The notes beneath the pieces were generated by a model. The model was not told the origin of the DNA, searched no databases, and saw only the letters and a list, made by a program, of their open reading frames with translations. This document shows positions 1,983 to 26,385 of a DNA stretch of 64,000 bases, one piece after another (the stretch's first letter is position 1; every line of letters begins with the position of its first letter). This DNA comes from an uncultured Bacilli bacterium (GTDB taxonomy: Bacteria; Bacillota_I; Bacilli_A; RF39; UBA660), in contig CANQCR010000003.1 in assembly GCA_947589735.1 (NCBI GenBank), positions 37,324 to 101,323 on the forward strand, given 5' to 3'. The position numbers and the translations under genes are program-made.

Positions 1983-3207
1983 TCAAACTCACATCCTTTA
2001 ATACTCCATCCCTATATAACGCCACTAAGAAATTTTTATATTTTTCAAATTGTTCTAATCTTTCGCCATTGTTAATTTTTTCTAAAATCTTAACTGCTTC
2101 TAAATTATACTTTCTAGACGGATATGATAAACTAACATAATCTTTTTTTTCTTTTCTTAATACTGAAATGTTAACTTTCATATTCTTTTTCTTTATTTTA
2201 TTCCATACTTTTTCGATTTCCGTTTTAACAATATAGTCATTTATTTCATTTAGTTTTTCTCCTAATTCAATTTTACAACCACATCGACATCTAGCTAAAT
2301 TCTTACATACTTTACAATATTCAGGGATCCATGCCATTTTCCTATAATCTTTAAGGGAAGTTTGATTCCAAATTTTTTTTATACTATTCTCTTTAATATT
2401 GCCAATAATTCTTTTTGAACTAGGACATATTTTTACATTACCATTATAATCAATACTACCAAATAAATAACCTGCACCACATCCATGTGTTAAATATGTA
2501 TACTTATCTTCTACAGTACATGGTGCAATACAATCATTTATAGAAAAGTTATAACCCTCACTCTTTAATATATTTAAATTTTCCACAAATGAATTAATAT
2601 TTATATAACACTTATTCTTTTTGCCTTCGCCTATATTATTGTATTTAGCAAATGAAACAGGTATATTTTTTTTATTTCCAAATTCTAAAATAGACCGCAT
2701 TTCTTTAATATCCTGATTATCACTTGTAACGGTATAATTTATTTTAACATTTGTAATTTTTCTTGCTAATTCAATATTTAATAGCACTTTGTCATAGCAA
2801 TTAGAATCAGTTAGTTTATTGTGCATTTCTTTGGTACCATGAAGAGAAACACAAACACACATAATTTTATTTAAAACAGGTTGAATTTTATCAAGAAATA
2901 TACCATTTGTTAAAATTGTCTGCCTAATTCCTAATTGGGAAGCATATTCTACAATTTCCATAAAGTTTGGATGCATAAGTGGTTCTCCACCAGTATAATA
3001 CACATCATATATTCCATTATTCTTTAGTTCATCTAAAATACTTCTCGCCATATCCATACTCATATATTCATTATTTTTATTTGATACGGAGCAAAACTTA
3101 CACCGCAAATTACAACTATTATTCAATTCTAAATAAAAGTACAAAGGCATATCAACGGTATCTAATGAAATATTTTGATTATAGCCAACACTCTCATACT
3201 TAATCAT
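1957..3207 (-). CDS. Radical SAM/SPASM-domain protein
   Basis: CNLRCKFC rSAM motif; a full SPASM motif (CKVCKNLARCRCGC); and a 26-nt overlap with the downstream rSAM gene. Confidence 0.8.
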   Translation of the reverse strand: MIKYESVGYNQNISLDTVDMPLYFYLELNNSCNLRCKFCSVSNKNNEYMSMDMARSILDELKNNGIYDVYYTGGEPLMHPNFMEIVEYASQLGIRQTILTNGIFLDKIQPVLNKIMCVCVSLHGTKEMHNKLTDSNCYDKVLLNIELARKITNVKINYTVTSDNQDIKEMRSILEFGNKKNIPVSFAKYNNIGEGKKNKCYININSFVENLNILKSEGYNFSINDCIAPCTVEDKYTYLTHGCGAGYLFGSIDYNGNVKICPSSKRIIGNIKENSIKKIWNQTSLKDYRKMAWIPEYCKVCKNLARCRCGCKIELGEKLNEINDYIVKTEIEKVWNKIKKKNMKVNISVLRKEKKDYVSLSYPSRKYNLEAVKILEKINNGERLEQFEKYKNFLVALYRDGVLKDVSLNAEKKNRK

Positions 3208-3341
3208 TTTATCTTTTCCTTAATTTTATTATCAACTTGGACAATTCTACATTGCGTCATTTCTGGTTTTAACTCTTTTAAATATATTTTTGATTGCAAA
3301 TCTTTTTTATCAGTTTTTTTTAGTAACGATTTAATACCCAT
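3204..3341 (-). CDS. Unannotated 45-aa ORF (MGIKSLLKKTDKKDLQSKIYLKELKPEMTQCRIVQVDNKIKEKIK). Candidate precursor peptide or small partner of the rSAM enzymes.
   Basis: An AGGAG motif sits 9 nt upstream of the ATG. The start overlaps the end of the B12-rSAM gene by 11 nt. The stop TGA overlaps the ATG of the next rSAM gene (ATGA). Confidence 0.5.
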   Translation of the reverse strand: MGIKSLLKKTDKKDLQSKIYLKELKPEMTQCRIVQVDNKIKEKIK

Positions 3342-4971
3342 TTTTCGCATCTCCTTTATAATTTAAGCTATAATATTTTCTATCTAAATACATATATTCT
3401 GAACGATATAATATTTTCAAGCGAGTATTTGCAAATTGCTTTATTTTTTTAATATTATTAAATTTATTAATAATAGACATATATTTATAGTAATTATCAT
3501 TTTTAGTTCTATAAATCAAATTCAAGTCTTGTTCTTCATTTAAGCAACTTAAATCAACCAATTTTGAGTTTCGCATATAATTAAATATGCTTAAGCCAAA
3601 AGTATCTAAATACTTAAATTTTCTAATAAATCTTAATGTTTTTCTAATATTTAAAATATTTTCCGTTGGATATCCAATCATAAATGTTGCTGATACGGAG
3701 ATTCCTGAATTATAAAAAATTTTCATGGTTTTTTTAGCAATATTCAAATCGATTCCTTTATTCATATCTCGCAATATTTTTTTATTATAAGACTCTACCC
3801 CAAACGATATTTCTCTACACCCGCTATTATATAAAATATTCGCGAATTTTCTATCTATATACTTGCTATCAATTCTAGTCTCGACCATCCATTTTATGTT
3901 AATGTCATTATCTATTAAATATGTAGCTAATTGCATTAAAATATCTGCTGGGATACATTCATCAACAAAATATACCGCTTCAATATGTTCTCTATTATAT
4001 AATTTTTTTAAATATGCAAATATTTTATTGATATCATATGTATGATAGCCGTTATAGTAATAGTATCTAGAGCAAAACATACATTTTGAATGATAACACC
4101 CATAGTTTAAAGTAAGTGGAACTAACTTTAAGTTTGATAAATAATTTTCTAAATTCAAATCACTAAAATCAGGCACATATTTATCTTTATAAAAGCAATC
4201 TTGCTGTTTATTAATCTTATATATAATTTTATTCTCATTTCTATAAATAACATTGTCTATATTTGATACTTTCTTATTTTGAAAGATTTTAATCGTTTCT
4301 ACAACATTATTATAGTTTCCGAATAAAACTATCCCATCTATATAAGAACACTTTTCCATTAGTTCTTTTAAATTTTTATTTATGTGTGTAATATAGTCTC
4401 CACCTAAGATAATTTTAATACTACTATTTTTAGATTTTAAATACCTTGAAAATCTAATAGCGTAGCTTAATTGAAAAGGATATTGAACACTTAAATAAAC
4501 AATATCGTTGTCATTTAAATCATGAGTATTTTTTAGAACCTTATCAAATATGCTATTTTCTTCACTAAAAGCTAATTCTATAATGTCATCAACTGTAAGA
4601 ATCTTTTTAGAAAAATCTATTCCTCTTCTTTCCCATTTTATCCCATAATGTCGGCCCATTATTTCTAAATATTTATGTATTTGTTCATTAGCTTCGATAA
4701 TCTTTAGGGTATCAATTTCCCTATCTTGCATTTGCTTTACAGCTTTTTCAATATTATCTACGATATTTTTTTCTTTTTCATTTAATGAATTATAATATTG
4801 TAAACACATCTCTTTAATATAATTATTTTTAAAACAGGTTTTCAAAAATCTTGATGTTAAATCATATTGTTTAGATTTTATTTTACATTCTTTCAAATAG
4901 CCTTTCAATAAAGGAACACTTATTTGTGGCATATTAAAGGCTGTCCCAGGTAATGTATATAAATAAAGCAT
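3331..4971 (-). CDS. B12-binding-domain radical SAM protein (class B rSAM, probable methyltransferase)
   Basis: An N-terminal cobalamin-binding-like domain and a Cys motif CYHSKCMFC inside an rSAM core. Confidence 0.7.
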   Translation of the reverse strand: MLYLYTLPGTAFNMPQISVPLLKGYLKECKIKSKQYDLTSRFLKTCFKNNYIKEMCLQYYNSLNEKEKNIVDNIEKAVKQMQDREIDTLKIIEANEQIHKYLEIMGRHYGIKWERRGIDFSKKILTVDDIIELAFSEENSIFDKVLKNTHDLNDNDIVYLSVQYPFQLSYAIRFSRYLKSKNSSIKIILGGDYITHINKNLKELMEKCSYIDGIVLFGNYNNVVETIKIFQNKKVSNIDNVIYRNENKIIYKINKQQDCFYKDKYVPDFSDLNLENYLSNLKLVPLTLNYGCYHSKCMFCSRYYYYNGYHTYDINKIFAYLKKLYNREHIEAVYFVDECIPADILMQLATYLIDNDINIKWMVETRIDSKYIDRKFANILYNSGCREISFGVESYNKKILRDMNKGIDLNIAKKTMKIFYNSGISVSATFMIGYPTENILNIRKTLRFIRKFKYLDTFGLSIFNYMRNSKLVDLSCLNEEQDLNLIYRTKNDNYYKYMSIINKFNNIKKIKQFANTRLKILYRSEYMYLDRKYYSLNYKGDAKNGY

Positions 4972-6138: not shown

Positions 6139-6528
6139 TTATTTTTTTATATAAACAGATATAACGTATAAATCCATACCATCAGCATTTTTATCATAGA
6201 TAACATTATCAATAATAGGAAGCATATGATAATAATTGTTTTTATCCCAGCAAAATACAATATATGAATCATTATTCAAATTCAAATCTTTAATCATAAC
6301 ATCTTTATCAAAATCAACATTAAAAATATTATTATCTTCCATATATTTTTCAAATACCGGTATATCATTAAATGAAGAACAATTTAATTCTTTTGCAACT
6401 TCACATAAGTCATTATAAACATCTTCATATTCTTTATTTAAAATCTTACACAAACTTCTTATTACGCAATTACTTTTACCGTTTTTATCTGATATACAAA
6501 ATTCTTTAAATATCATCTTAATCTCCAA
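6139..6528 (-). CDS. Hypothetical protein
   Basis: A 129-aa ORF within the run of minus-strand genes. Confidence 0.5.
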   Translation of the reverse strand: MEIKMIFKEFCISDKNGKSNCVIRSLCKILNKEYEDVYNDLCEVAKELNCSSFNDIPVFEKYMEDNNIFNVDFDKDVMIKDLNLNNDSYIVFCWDKNNYYHMLPIIDNVIYDKNADGMDLYVISVYIKK

Positions 6529-22714: not shown

Positions 22715-24172
22715 TTACCTCCTATCAATTTCTTCTTTGATAATTTGGGCCGTTAATGATGGATTAGCTTGACCTCTTGTCTCTTTCATTACTTGACCGA
22801 CGAAGAAATCAAAAGTATTACGACCTTTACGATGTTCAATAATTAAATCAGGATGAGCATCTAAAACTCTAACGACAATATCCCGAATAGTTTTATCATC
22901 AGATATTTGACTAACACCTAATTCTTTGACAATGACTTTTGGTTCTTTCTTTTCTTCTAAGACTTTATTTAAAACTTCTTTACTCTGTTTAGAAGATATT
23001 TTACCATCTTTCGTCATCTGCATTAAATCAACTAACATTTTGGGTGTTAAATAAAGATCTTTAATTTCTAATTCATTTTTATTTAAATAACCTAATATGA
23101 CACTTGTAAGCCAGTTAGCCGCTCCTTTAGGATCAGCTCCTAAACTGATAACCTCTTCATAATAATCCGAAATAGCTTTATCTTTAACTAGTATTTTAGC
23201 GTCATAAGCTGATAGGTTATATGTTTTCATATATTTTTCTTTACGTTCAGGCGCTAAAGCAGGAATACTCTTACGAATATTATCGAGCCAACTTGAGCTT
23301 ATTTTAAACTTTGGAATATTAGGTTCAACAAAATATTTATAGTCGATAGCATCTACTTTACTTCGCATAAACTTCGTTGTAAAAGTATCTTCATCCCATC
23401 TTCTGGTTTGTTGTTCCATCTTATCATATTCACCCTTTTGTTTTAACTCTACTTGTCTTTCAATTTCATAGTTAATAGCGTCTCTAACGCCGGCAAAAGA
23501 GTTAACATTTTTAATTTCTACTTTAGTTCCCCAATTTTTAGGATCTGTTTCATCTAGGTTTTCATCCATAATCGAAACGTTAACGTCACATCTAATTTGT
23601 CCCTTGCGGTTATCCGCATCACTTATTTCAGCATACTGATAAATAGAGCGCATCGTCTCAAGAAAAGCAACGGCTTCATCAGCGCTATGTAAATCCGGTT
23701 CCGTTACTAATTCTAGAAGAGGAACACCAGCCCGGTTATAATCAATGGTTGAAAAAGTAGGATAGTGATCAGATGAAGCAGCATCTTCTTCTAGATGGAT
23801 ATTGTTAATGCGAACAGTTCTCTCTTCATCTTTATAATCAAAAGTAAGGGAGCCATAGATACCGACAGGAGCAGGTTTAGTCTCTTGTGTAATCTGATAA
23901 CCCTTAGGTAAATCAGGATAATAATAATTCTTTCTTTCAAAGTACATATACTCTGGTTGTTTACAATTTAAAATCATACTTGCTTTTAAAGCTAGCTCAA
24001 CCGCTTTTTTATTGACAACTGGTAAGGTTCCTGGAAAAGCCATATCAAGAGGTCTAATATTGGCATTAGGAGTATCATTATAATCGTTTAGAGCACTACT
24101 AAAAACTTTCGTCTTTGTCTTACTTATTTCACAGTGCATCTCAAGTCCGATTAAAGCTTTATATCCGTCCAT
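22715..24172 (-). CDS. gatB: Asp/Glu-tRNA amidotransferase subunit B
   Basis: GatB N- and C-terminal signatures; gatC-gatA-gatB gene order. Confidence 0.9.
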   Translation of the reverse strand: MDGYKALIGLEMHCEISKTKTKVFSSALNDYNDTPNANIRPLDMAFPGTLPVVNKKAVELALKASMILNCKQPEYMYFERKNYYYPDLPKGYQITQETKPAPVGIYGSLTFDYKDEERTVRINNIHLEEDAASSDHYPTFSTIDYNRAGVPLLELVTEPDLHSADEAVAFLETMRSIYQYAEISDADNRKGQIRCDVNVSIMDENLDETDPKNWGTKVEIKNVNSFAGVRDAINYEIERQVELKQKGEYDKMEQQTRRWDEDTFTTKFMRSKVDAIDYKYFVEPNIPKFKISSSWLDNIRKSIPALAPERKEKYMKTYNLSAYDAKILVKDKAISDYYEEVISLGADPKGAANWLTSVILGYLNKNELEIKDLYLTPKMLVDLMQMTKDGKISSKQSKEVLNKVLEEKKEPKVIVKELGVSQISDDKTIRDIVVRVLDAHPDLIIEHRKGRNTFDFFVGQVMKETRGQANPSLTAQIIKEEIDRR

Positions 24173-25626
24173 TATTTTACCTCCTTTGCAATTTGATCTT
24201 TATAATTCATTTGTCCTTCCAAAGCATAGGCAATATTTAAGACACATGCGTCATCATAACAATTACCTGTTATATTAACACCGACAGGTAGATTATTTAT
24301 AAAGCCATTAGGAATGGTAATTGAAGGGAATCCTCCAAAGTTACCAATCTGTAAATGTTCTTCTAAAATATGACTATTTTTATAATCTTTATTTTTAGCA
24401 TCATCTAAATATTTAGCTGGTCCACTACCAACGGGTAAGATAACAGCATCATATTTTTTAAATAATTCTTTCCACGTATCAACAAGTAATCTTCTAACTC
24501 TTTGGGCATTATTAAAGTAACGGTCTTTGTTTTCAGCTTGTAAAACGTATGAACCGATAATAAAACGCCTTTTAATTAATGATGAAAATCCTTCGGTCCG
24601 ATAGTTCTTCATCATTTCAACATAAGTATCCCCTTTGCTTCGAGGTCCAAAGATAATACCGGTTAAATTAGACATATTAGAAGTTGCTTCAGCACAAGAG
24701 ATAACAACATAAACAGAGTTTAGGGCATCTAATAATTTCATATCAACCGATACTTCATCAACACTCATACCGATCTTTTTACATAATTCTAATGTCTTAT
24801 TAAAATTAGCTAAATGTTCTTTTAATTCATCTGAAGCATCAGGATAATTATTTATATCACATATCTCTTTAACATAACAAAGTTTTTTACCTTTAACATC
24901 ATCACTTAAAGATTCATATAAATGTATATCACTAGAATCCCAACTAGTCATATCATTTTTATCAATGCCTTTCATCGCATCTGTTACAATAGCGGCATCT
25001 CTAACACTACGGGTAAGACATCCTAAGTGATCAAGACTTGAGGCAAATGGGAATAAGCCATACCGAGAAATCATTCCGTAAGTTGGCTTAAAACCGACAA
25101 TCCCACAGTAAGCAGCCGGTTTACGAATAGAGTCCCCTGTATCAGAACCCGTCGCAAAAGGATAAACACCAGCGGCGACAGATGCGGCACTTCCAGATGA
25201 ACTTCCGGCACACATTCTTTCTTTATCCCAAGGATTTTTAATAAATCCCGTATGCGCTGTTTTACCAAGGCCACCCATACCAAACTCATCCATCGTTGTC
25301 TTACCGATTAAAACAGCCCCACTACTTTTTAATTTCGTAACAGCCGTGGCATCAAAAAATGGTACATAATCTTTTAAGGTATTACTAGATCCCGTACTTA
25401 AAATATCTTTCGTACTATAGTTATCTTTTAAGCCATATGGAATACCTGATAATAAATTATCAGATACACTCGCCCCTTTAGCGTCATCAATAATTGTTAC
25501 AAAGGCATTACATTCTTTAGCGCAATCATGCGCTTTAGCTAAAGATTCTTTAACTAACTCTTCACTAGTTACCTCACCCTTCTTCAAGGCTTCGTGAAGT
25601 TCTACAATTCCTTTATCCATGTACAT
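24172..25626 (-). CDS. gatA: Glutamyl-tRNA(Gln) amidotransferase subunit A
   Basis: Amidase signature GGSSGGSAA. Confidence 0.9.
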   Translation of the reverse strand: MYMDKGIVELHEALKKGEVTSEELVKESLAKAHDCAKECNAFVTIIDDAKGASVSDNLLSGIPYGLKDNYSTKDILSTGSSNTLKDYVPFFDATAVTKLKSSGAVLIGKTTMDEFGMGGLGKTAHTGFIKNPWDKERMCAGSSSGSAASVAAGVYPFATGSDTGDSIRKPAAYCGIVGFKPTYGMISRYGLFPFASSLDHLGCLTRSVRDAAIVTDAMKGIDKNDMTSWDSSDIHLYESLSDDVKGKKLCYVKEICDINNYPDASDELKEHLANFNKTLELCKKIGMSVDEVSVDMKLLDALNSVYVVISCAEATSNMSNLTGIIFGPRSKGDTYVEMMKNYRTEGFSSLIKRRFIIGSYVLQAENKDRYFNNAQRVRRLLVDTWKELFKKYDAVILPVGSGPAKYLDDAKNKDYKNSHILEEHLQIGNFGGFPSITIPNGFINNLPVGVNITGNCYDDACVLNIAYALEGQMNYKDQIAKEVK

Positions 25627-25925
25627 TATCCCACCACCTTTGGAACTTTTATTTCGGTATCGACGTAGTTATCACAATTTTGAAGTAATTCATCAATGGG
25701 AACACTTTCTTCTTCGACATCTTCTCTTAGTTCATAAACAAAATCATCTAAGCAATGCGTCATCGGTTCAACCTCACCTAACCCATCAATCGCATTCAAA
25801 CGATCAATATCCGCATCAATCTTATCAAACTCATCTAAAACCATCTTGTTTTCTTCTGGTGTTAGACCAATCAATAACTTATCAGCTAAATCATCAACAA
25901 CTTCTTTGGTAAATACTTTTGTCAT
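25626..25925 (-). CDS. gatC: Amidotransferase subunit C
   Basis: 99 aa. The true ATG at 25925 is preceded by AAAGGAGG. The ORF-track start at 25952 is a TTG over-extension. Confidence 0.8.
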   Translation of the reverse strand: MTKVFTKEVVDDLADKLLIGLTPEENKMVLDEFDKIDADIDRLNAIDGLGEVEPMTHCLDDFVYELREDVEEESVPIDELLQNCDNYVDTEIKVPKVVG

Positions 25926-25940
25926 AATATCCTCCTTTAT

Positions 25941-25967
25941 ATGAAAAAACAAGTCCTAGGACTTGTT
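25941..25967 (-). terminator. Intrinsic terminator/attenuator between tRNA-Asn and gatC
   Basis: AACAAGTCC-TA-GGACTTGTT hairpin followed by a T6 run, immediately upstream of the gatC SD. Confidence 0.55.
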
Positions 25968-25977
25968 ATTTACTAAG

Positions 25978-26053
25978 TGGCGCCTGATGTAGGACTCGGA
26001 CCTACGACCTGCCGGTTAACAGCCGGATGCTCTACCGACTGAGCTAATCAGGC
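25978..26053 (-). tRNA. tRNA-Asn (GTT)
   Basis: Hand-folded cloverleaf; anticodon loop CTGTTAA; encoded CCA. Confidence 0.85.
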
Positions 26054-26056
26054 GCA

Positions 26057-26132
26057 TGGCGCTCAATGTAGGACTCGGACCTACGACCTGCCGGTTAACA
26101 GCCGGATGCTCTACCAACTGAGCTAATTGAGC
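26057..26132 (-). tRNA. tRNA-Asn (GTT), second tandem copy with a different acceptor stem
   Basis: Same body as the first copy; acceptor GCTCAAT/ATTGAGC; encoded CCA. Confidence 0.85.
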
Positions 26133-26385
26133 AATTAATAAATTATAGTCCCGATTGGGACGAAATATTCCGCGGTGCCACCCAATTTATCAATATTATT
26201 GATCACTTTATCGATTCTATTAAATCGTGTAATATGATAACGGATTACTTCCGATTAAGCCTACTTCGTTCAGCCTAACAACTAGTGGATGTTATTCATA
26301 ATAAACTTAATCGTTAGCTCACACCATACCTAACTCGCTTTTATCAGTTTTTATTATTACTTCTTCCACGTCAAAACGCTTATGT
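26133..26385 (-). promoter_or_regulatory. T-box riboswitch-like leader, probably Asn-specific
   Basis: Conserved T-box sequence AAATTGGGTGGCACCGCGG at 26170-26188, followed by a GTCCC-AATC-GGGAC hairpin and an A/T-rich tract. Stem I is closed by GATTAAG/CTTAATC and contains candidate AAC specifier codons. Confidence 0.6.

Follow-up and report, generated by a model that had tools for sequence, protein, structure and literature searches.

A conserved small peptide gene coupled to a SPASM radical-SAM enzyme in uncultured gut Bacilli: candidate substrate of a pair of SPASM enzymes

What is the role of a 45-residue open reading frame (ORF) that overlaps, at both of its ends, genes for radical S-adenosylmethionine (radical-SAM) enzymes? 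The question is raised by a stretch of 64,000 nucleotides from an uncultured Bacilli bacterium of the RF39 lineage (NCBI GenBank assembly GCA_947589735.1, contig CANQCR010000003.1, positions 37,324 to 101,323; hereafter the window), for which a preliminary description, made without database searches, had proposed that this ORF encodes the precursor of a modified peptide. We refer to the ORF as pepB and to the radical-SAM/SPASM gene downstream of it as SPASM1; a second gene of that type, SPASM2, follows. Our analysis revealed that pepB is a genuine, selected small peptide gene that is specific to one cluster family, and that it is coupled to SPASM1, a relative of peptide-modifying enzymes. With about even confidence, we favour the explanation that pepB is a substrate peptide of SPASM1 and SPASM2, that is, a precursor or scaffold of the type found in peptides made on ribosomes and modified after translation (RiPPs), and that it is modified around its single cysteine, Cys31.

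pepB is a genuine gene under purifying selection

The pepB gene occupies positions 3204-3341 of the minus strand, stop included, with its ATG at 3341-3339 and its TGA at 3206-3204, and encodes the 45 amino acids MGIKSLLKKTDKKDLQSKIYLKELKPEMTQCRIVQVDNKIKEKIK. A Shine-Dalgarno (SD) sequence, AGGAG, is located at 3355-3351 (minus strand), inside the last codons of the upstream cobalamin (B12)-type radical-SAM gene, and leaves a spacer of 9 nt to the ATG, while the stop codon and the ATG of SPASM1 (3207-3205) share the four bases ATGA; both signals are as they had been described, read on the minus strand. The start of pepB had also been said to overlap the stop of the upstream gene, and the two ORFs do overlap by 11 nt, although the ATG itself precedes the TAA (3333-3331) of that 546-aa gene by 8 nt. 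In a mechanical ORF list, the frame is 48 aa long and begins with an ATG at 3350, a start that leaves no spacer to the SD. The gene had been called unannotated; it has no family match, but a 45-aa product, unnamed, does appear among the gene calls of public contigs that are identical. In this genome, TGA is a genuine but rare stop codon and tryptophan is encoded by TGG, and thus the standard code applies. An alternative code in which TGA encodes tryptophan (one public call ends in …KTKW) was rejected, as the long ORFs contain no in-frame TGA, tryptophan is TGG, and the TGA of SPASM1 is backed by another stop.

A frame of this length might be open by chance or reflect a non-coding element in a short intergenic stretch. 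pepB is indeed short, lysine-rich and of low complexity, it lies in an AT-rich genome and lacks a curated family match. However, the chance of 45 codons without a stop is only about 0.017 at the local base composition, and the alignments contradict this explanation. In the close set of homologues, residues 19-36 are identical, whereas 14 of the 18 codons change synonymously, including TTA/CTT for leucine and AGA/CGA for arginine, and all 19 third-codon positions of the core are variable. The ratio of nonsynonymous to synonymous polymorphism (pN/pS) of the core was 0.008 at a pS of 0.54 in this set; it was 0.095 for PEMTQCRxxQ across the family and 0.18 for the whole-family core. The other five frames are interrupted by stops in most or all sequences. 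An RNA element was also ruled out: no structure signal was found at pepB (z +0.98) and Rfam gave no match near it. Thus, the homologues, their conserved position, the third-position variation and the closed alternative frames make pepB more than a chance ORF, and the synonymous-only variation refutes a reading to which we assign a negligible probability. The preliminary description had named the lack of a conserved small ORF in homologous clusters as an outcome that would refute it; the opposite was decisively the case, as such an ORF is present there and its frame is under selection. A promoter scan of this AT-rich DNA found fewer promoter-like sites than in shuffled sequences and was uninformative; no terminator was found between the cluster genes by a scan that is likewise uninformative in such DNA.

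To define the family, 5.8 billion proteins were searched, which yielded 28 pepB homologues, 25 of them 42-48 aa long and the other three longer calls (59-68 aa); when 1.84 billion representatives were searched with a profile, only 21 clusters emerged. One protein listed in the 90% cluster of the peptide (P0195, 413 aa) is dissimilar to it and looks like a clustering artefact. Members of the family are 33-60 aa long with a conserved part of about 20 residues. In the alignment, a variable, basic N-terminus is accompanied by the invariant block IYLKELKPEMTQCRIVQV; in the window, the conserved core comprises residues 19-37 (IYLKELKPEMTQCRIVQVD; 3231-3287, minus strand). The family signature is I-x-[ILV]-[KRE]-[EK]-[LIV]-[KR]-P-E-[MIL]-T-[QED]-C-R-[ILVM]-[IV]-Q-[VILM]-[DEN], in which Glu27, Thr29, Cys31, Arg32 and Gln35 are invariant family-wide. 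Of the two residues that had been singled out as a likely core, Cys31 (codon 3249-3251) is therefore invariant across the whole family, whereas position 20, a tyrosine here, varies in more distant members (Y, F, E, A, K or S). Because Tyr20 is not conserved and the lysines are kept only as general basic character, the Lys/aromatic cross-link that had been considered finds no support.

pepB precedes SPASM1 in nearly all related clusters

We fetched 42 loci, of which genomes supplied 12, metagenomes 17 and exact protein look-ups 13 (L001-L002, L015-L022 and L040-L042). pepB lies directly 5' of a SPASM1 orthologue in about 40 loci, with SPASM2 next, and this order holds even where SPASM1 identity falls to about 30%. 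In 25 of 26 loci, the distance from the pepB stop to the SPASM1 start is between -22 and +4 nt. When sampling started from the enzymes, the peptide was again found in L040 and L041, in the latter as an uncalled ORF. Every homologous cluster that was examined has pepB at the same position, except L038/L039, in which the peptide is a KKEMTQCR variant and stands before another radical-SAM gene, of 584 aa, and L042, a remote system with 32% identity that lacks the peptide.

Free and fused forms of pepB

In a part of these loci (L003, L004, L023 and L024, the L005 group, L007, L009 and L030), no stop separates the B12 radical-SAM gene from the peptide frame that continues it, and 19 of 53 full-length B12 homologue clusters carry the peptide in frame as a C-terminal tail. 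This raises the question of whether the ORF in the window is only the detached end of the B12 gene, produced when a 1-nt indel split a 588-aa gene, with no role of its own. The nearest relatives, about 90% identical (L003, L004, L023 and L024; cluster P0137 with 230 contigs), do have the fused 588-aa form, which is the common form within the 90% cluster, the 546-aa form being in the minority; moreover, the junction of the window allele is one base longer than the fused junction of L003, which restores a separate ORF. Four observations argue against such an origin as a general explanation. First, in the more distant L012-L014 and L033-L035, pepB is a separate gene after the B12 stop, with its own GGAGG SD in L012-L014, and the free state thus looks ancestral. 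Second, the peptide also occurs with no B12 enzyme upstream of it, following a YcaO gene, a methyltransferase gene, an S8 peptidase gene or an intergenic region. Third, the split allele is found on several independent contigs with its frame, SD and ATG intact. Fourth, the tail lies outside the enzyme fold: in the AlphaFold2 (AF2) model of the natural fusion P0137, the mean predicted local distance difference test (pLDDT) score was 87.6, with about 90 for the enzyme and 28-35 for the tail (residues 542-588). The tail is thus predicted to be disordered, and the peptide would not be a folded part of the B12 enzyme. Detachment is valid only as a description of the recent history of this strain, and it is very unlikely to be the whole account of pepB. 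As fused and unfused B12 clusters are interleaved in identity, fusion and fission must have occurred repeatedly.

The start signals of the free peptide persist in the B12 fusions. A methionine at the position of the free start is kept in all 19 fused proteins, and a purine-rich SD is kept at all five types of B12-fused junction examined at the DNA level, although the junction amino acids differ. Indeed, a purine run resembling an SD is present 6-11 nt before the ATG in every B12-adjacent locus, fused ones included. Fusions to other partners were also found, always to the adjacent gene, which is usually the upstream one, so that nearly all tethering is on the N-terminal side of the peptide. The idea that a free C-terminus is obligatory was nevertheless dropped, because it is contradicted by P0136, a fusion of a pepB-like segment to SPASM1.

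The gene set around pepB and a second small peptide

In the minus-strand gene order of the window, pepB is followed by SPASM1 (3207-1957, 416 aa), to which it is translationally coupled, and by SPASM2 (1982-798, 394 aa), which always comes after SPASM1 in related clusters. The AF2 model of SPASM1 (pLDDT 94) has as its nearest structures SuiB with bound SuiA, followed by CteB, SkfB, anSME and PqqE, and the sequence-level matches of the SPASM enzymes in the PDB were SkfB, PqqE, CteB and SuiB. The earlier view that the neighbours are of a peptide-modifying type is upheld by this closeness of SPASM1 to SuiB, CteB and SkfB. Residues 343-405 of SPASM1, including …YNLEAVKILEKINNGERLEQ…FLVALYRDGVL, are modelled in a beta-beta-beta(-beta)-alpha-alpha layout, a secondary-structure pattern that resembles RiPP recognition element (RRE) or PqqD-like domains. 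SPASM2 has an N-terminal extension of about 75 aa that is RRE-like by sequence pattern only.

Upstream of pepB, the co-directional run begins in the window with a HisC/CobD-like pyridoxal phosphate (PLP) enzyme (aminotransferase class I/II; 5954-4971), followed by the 546-aa class-B, cobalamin-type radical-SAM gene (4971-3331). The latter has a Radical_SAM match and sub-threshold matches to PhpK, BchE and RiPP C-methyltransferase models, and the fold neighbours of its model are the cobalamin radical-SAM enzymes OxsB, MgmA, AprD4, TsrM and TokK; these bear out the B12 label given to it before, which Pfam alone did not show. At the other end, a gene with PPDK_N and PEP-utilizer domains, similar to phosphoenolpyruvate (PEP) synthase, is cut by the window edge (805-1, minus strand; the N-terminal part of 567 aa). 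Its ATG (805-803; MIKLEEFKKYKEV…) overlaps the end of SPASM2, and its best NCBIfam matches, which all scored far under their cut-offs, were to PEP synthase, to rifamycin phosphotransferase and to PigC/RedH, the prodigiosin ligases.

Identical contigs extend past this edge and carry the complete PEP-synthase-like gene (567 aa), a small ORF, which we call pepA, and a convergent 681-aa YcaO gene. The YcaO protein is nearest to the E. coli-type model NF040716, again far below its cut-off; an enzyme of this type carries out the thioamidation of the protein uL16 in E. coli (PMC13063428). pepA (MIRFLKRLFRKDNNVLINLNNVNKTLSMSMAGNGNCSDCC; L001:14141-14263, plus strand) lies just beyond the left window edge and has its own SD. 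It encodes about 40 aa of the form MIxFLKKLFKK…NVLINLNNVNKTLSMSMAGNGNCSDCC that contain …SMSMAGNGNCSDCC. In closer clusters its C-terminus is an invariant M-A-G-x-G-x-C-x-D-x-C, and the distant clusters have …GGNYCSD[VC]C. pepA was also found in L005-L014, L015, L033-L036, L040 and L041, in most loci after the PEP-synthase-like gene and beside the E. coli-type YcaO, and it is present wherever the context is complete. The N-termini of pepA and pepB look alike by eye (IKxlFKK), but a shared leader was rejected because hhalign gave it a probability of only 1.6%.

Overall, the conserved set consists of pepB, SPASM1, SPASM2, YcaO, the PEP-synthase-like enzyme and pepA. The variable additions are the PLP enzyme, which is present in most related clusters and absent from L015 and L040, the B12 radical-SAM enzyme, a class-I methyltransferase, and, in L021/L022, an S8 peptidase with an ABC ATPase. 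In the last two loci, the S8 peptidase precedes pepB, and neither pepA nor any other small ORF was visible on the contigs. The distant pepB found there (L021:7323-7481 and L022:6281-6439) has a longer C-terminal extension (…EKEEKEKTIKKESDNTFVSMESKNGNNKI). A faint likeness of the L021 peptide tail (…FVSMESKNGNNKI) to the pepA core (LSMSMAGNGNC) was judged too weak to use.

Substrate or adaptor

If pepB is a substrate of the SPASM pair, its path might be as follows. The peptide would be translated by coupling from a polycistronic message through an SD and an ATG of its own, which lie within the last part of the B12 gene and are conserved. Predicted to be intrinsically disordered, it could be captured by the RRE-like domain of SPASM1, SPASM2 or both, and acquire its modification in the invariant P-E-x-T-Q-C-R-x-x-Q segment. 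Most plausibly, this would be a thioether or C-C cross-link from Cys31 to Glu27, Thr29 or Gln35, as made by CteB, PapB, QhpD and SkfB-type enzymes, and the variable tailoring enzymes, namely the B12 radical-SAM enzyme and the class-I methyltransferase, may add methyl groups. The in-frame fusions would then be tolerated read-through of tightly packed genes, with the enzyme as a very long N-terminal extension of a peptide whose internal start is kept. The disorder, the coupling to an enzyme of maturase type, the S8 peptidase and ABC context of L021/L022, the tethering of the peptide almost wholly by its N-terminal side and the internal start kept in fusions are all consistent with a substrate. 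Because a conserved protease or exporter is lacking and the core is near-invariant across species, an intracellular peptide-derived factor or signal would be a likelier product than a diversifying bacteriocin.

Several findings weigh on the other side. pepA has the more classical layout, with a leader and a Cys-rich C-terminal core, and is possibly the only true substrate. In pepB, the motif is central, and distant members have only 4-10 residues before it and a variable Lys/Glu-rich tail after it, so that no clear split into leader and core is seen; the near-invariance of the 20-aa motif would also fit a protein-protein interface. The conserved 8-gene set contains no protease or transporter. 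The resemblance of the SPASM1 C-terminal domain to an RRE is one of secondary-structure pattern, and the Pfam scan gave no PqqD match. Not all fusions keep a start: the motif is a C-terminal tail of YcaO in L015 and L040, where the tail contains no ATG, and of the methyltransferase in L016 and P0042, also with no ATG and, in L016, with no GTG or TTG either, while in P0136 a SPASM1 homologue carries the motif at its own N-terminus, as a subunit would do. Finally, the whole of the modification chemistry proposed for pepB is an inference.

These findings give weight to a second explanation, which had been mentioned before as a small accessory subunit and is still a live rival: pepB may be an accessory or adaptor module, whose 20-aa segment docks on SPASM1 or another enzyme and completes or activates it, like a leader acting in trans, or tethers the enzymes that mature pepA. 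Its occurrence as a tail or head of four pathway enzymes (the B12 radical-SAM enzyme, YcaO, the class-I methyltransferase and SPASM1) is the Rosetta-stone pattern of interacting subunits, and PqqD is likewise fused to different Pqq proteins. The fusions without an internal start, the higher identity of the motif (100%) than of the enzymes (55-75%), the absence of a leader/core split and the presence of pepA as a classical-looking precursor wherever the context is complete point in the same direction. On the other hand, the conserved part of some 20 residues is too short for an RRE or a PqqD-type fold, and it is predicted to be disordered when attached to the B12 enzyme. This disorder speaks against a folded domain and is compatible with both a substrate and an adaptor. 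In addition, the internal methionine of all 19 B12 fusions, together with the SD in those loci that were examined, indicates the free peptide as the working form, and the fusion partner is simply the gene that happens to stand upstream, a sign of adjacency more than of a specific interface. From radical-SAM RiPP pathways, no natural example of a micro-adaptor of this sort is known to us. We therefore consider the adaptor possible but the less probable of the two, and the substrate explanation, in which pepB is the putative precursor first proposed, leads as a hypothesis, with pepA as a second candidate precursor beyond the window edge.

Comparison with known systems

As a small gene directly beside a SPASM radical-SAM gene, pepB resembles the precursors of SuiA/SuiB (streptide), CteA/CteB and SkfA/SkfB, and SuiB, CteB and SkfB are the nearest structures to the SPASM1 model. 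The Cys of CteA ligates an auxiliary cluster in CteB, and the invariant Cys of pepB could do likewise. The differences are also considerable. Unlike the streptide precursor, pepB has no Trp, so that a Lys-Trp link is impossible, and the conserved aromatic residue of streptide and cyclophane precursors is absent from its family; in contrast to the multi-Cys cores of sactipeptides and ranthipeptides, including SCIFF, it has a single Cys. The putative RRE of SPASM1 is C-terminal, whereas that of SuiB/CteB/SkfB-type maturases is N-terminal, and none of the NCBIfam maturase models reached its cut-off, with StsB, SkfB, AlbA and PapB far below. Also unlike in the SuiA, CteA and SkfA systems, pepB always occurs together with a pair of SPASM enzymes, with YcaO and PEP-synthase-like enzymes and with another peptide.

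The cysteine-to-aspartate or -glutamate thioether systems QhpC/QhpD and PapA/PapB are also based on SPASM radical-SAM enzymes, and pepB has an invariant E-x3-C and C-x3-Q around its single Cys, a spacing that resembles the C-x3-D/E rings in the substrates of PapB. The order of the Glu is nevertheless reversed in pepB relative to PapA, only one ring is possible, and the PapB model NF047865 scored 64.6 bits against a cut-off of 340. With PqqA/PqqE(+PqqD) and MftA/MftC(+MftB), pepB shares a very small size, key residues that are invariant across species and a conserved gene set with no exporter or protease, which hints at an intracellular product. However, the E-x3-Y and the C-terminal GVY of those peptides are absent from pepB, as are the downstream Pqq and Mft genes, no sign of a redox partner was seen, and the models of PqqE (82.9 bits; cut-off, 381) and MftC (82-88 bits; cut-off, 265) matched only below threshold. 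A stand-alone RRE or PqqD-like chaperone, a winged helix of about 80-90 aa, also differs from pepB, which is 33-60 aa long and predicted to be disordered as a natural tail.

The alternation between a free peptide and a C-terminal enzyme tail, with repeated switching, has a parallel in borosins, in which the OphMA type is fused and the Shewanella type is split; for these, both fused and split precursor-enzyme architectures are reported (bioRxiv 10.1101/2021.12.24.474128; PMC8429565). The partners of pepB are, however, a B12 radical-SAM enzyme, a YcaO or a Methyltransf_11/25 class-I enzyme and not a borosin alpha-N-methyltransferase, there are four of them when SPASM1 is counted, always encoded by the adjacent gene, and pepB is free in the window. 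Because the internal start is kept in all of the B12 fusions, the fusion may be incidental.

Neither the pepB family nor pepA gave anything meaningful against Pfam, NCBIfam or PDB profiles, and a literature search for the motifs and for the combination of YcaO, radical SAM, PEP synthase or dikinase and RiPP returned no match; the published dehydrazole pathway is unrelated. Neither this peptide family nor the gene set with two peptides nor the promiscuous tethering is described in the databases and literature searched.

Hosts, genomic setting and other features of the window

The G+C content of all peptide-bearing loci is 24-36%. The named source records are metagenome-assembled genomes (MAGs) of uncultured gut Bacilli, including 'Candidatus Onthocola', a record labelled Mollicutes and a 1.46-Mb chromosome, and the MAGs were obtained from samples of human, chicken, rabbit and rumen origin. 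On the 1.46-Mb chromosome (L010, CP091726.1), each cluster gene between about 7260 and 16454 is split into several tblastn pieces, and the peptide frame contains an extra A in a homopolymer (TTTAAAAAGAA versus TTTAAAAGAA); long-read homopolymer errors are a more likely cause of these breaks than true pseudogenes.

Serine recombinase genes flank the cluster in several loci (L001:16693-18342, L003:3-1460, L007:4152-5666 and L008:17592-19124). In L040 (1-1973 and 12052-13017), the cluster lies among DNA_pol_A, DUF5906 and Phage_T7_tail genes. As the flanks vary between species while the cluster is constant, this suggests that the cluster travels on mobile or phage-like DNA.

Between GNAT genes and the cluster, the window contains an ORF of 129 aa (6139-6528, minus strand; 125 aa from the ATG chosen by gene callers) that has no Pfam or NCBIfam match and whose conservation (71-74%) is confined to L003, L004 and L023, the closest relatives. 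Elsewhere in the window (22715-26383, minus strand), a T-box leader (26153-26383; 121.8 bits) stands directly upstream of two tRNA-Asn(GTT) genes (25978-26132), after which come three ORFs (108, 484 and 485 aa) in the same orientation; by appearance these form a gatCAB-type amidotransferase operon, a label we use provisionally.

Implications

A broader scheme may be outlined, to which we give rather little credence. pepB might work either free or tethered to any enzyme of the pathway, as an enzyme-borne substrate or scaffold on which the two SPASM radical-SAM enzymes, YcaO and the PEP-synthase-like and PLP enzymes would build an intracellular cofactor or signal, in a two-peptide system (pepA and pepB) confined to small-genome uncultured gut Bacilli.

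For annotation, the fusions carry a warning, as peptides of this kind can hide as C-terminal 'tails' of enzymes. The repeated switching between free and fused forms provides a natural test of the extent to which a peptide of RiPP type can bear being tethered to an enzyme, and the five invariant residues are direct targets for mutagenesis. If pepB is a substrate, the cluster would represent an undescribed peptide-modification system of two SPASM radical-SAM enzymes, an E. coli-type YcaO, a PEP-synthase-like enzyme and two invariant peptides, borne by gut Bacilli that are abundant but uncultured. That organisms with few accessory genes keep this 9-kb cluster suggests that its product is important to them, and the core motif, almost unchanged across species, argues for a conserved target or a role like that of a cofactor and against an arms-race antibiotic.

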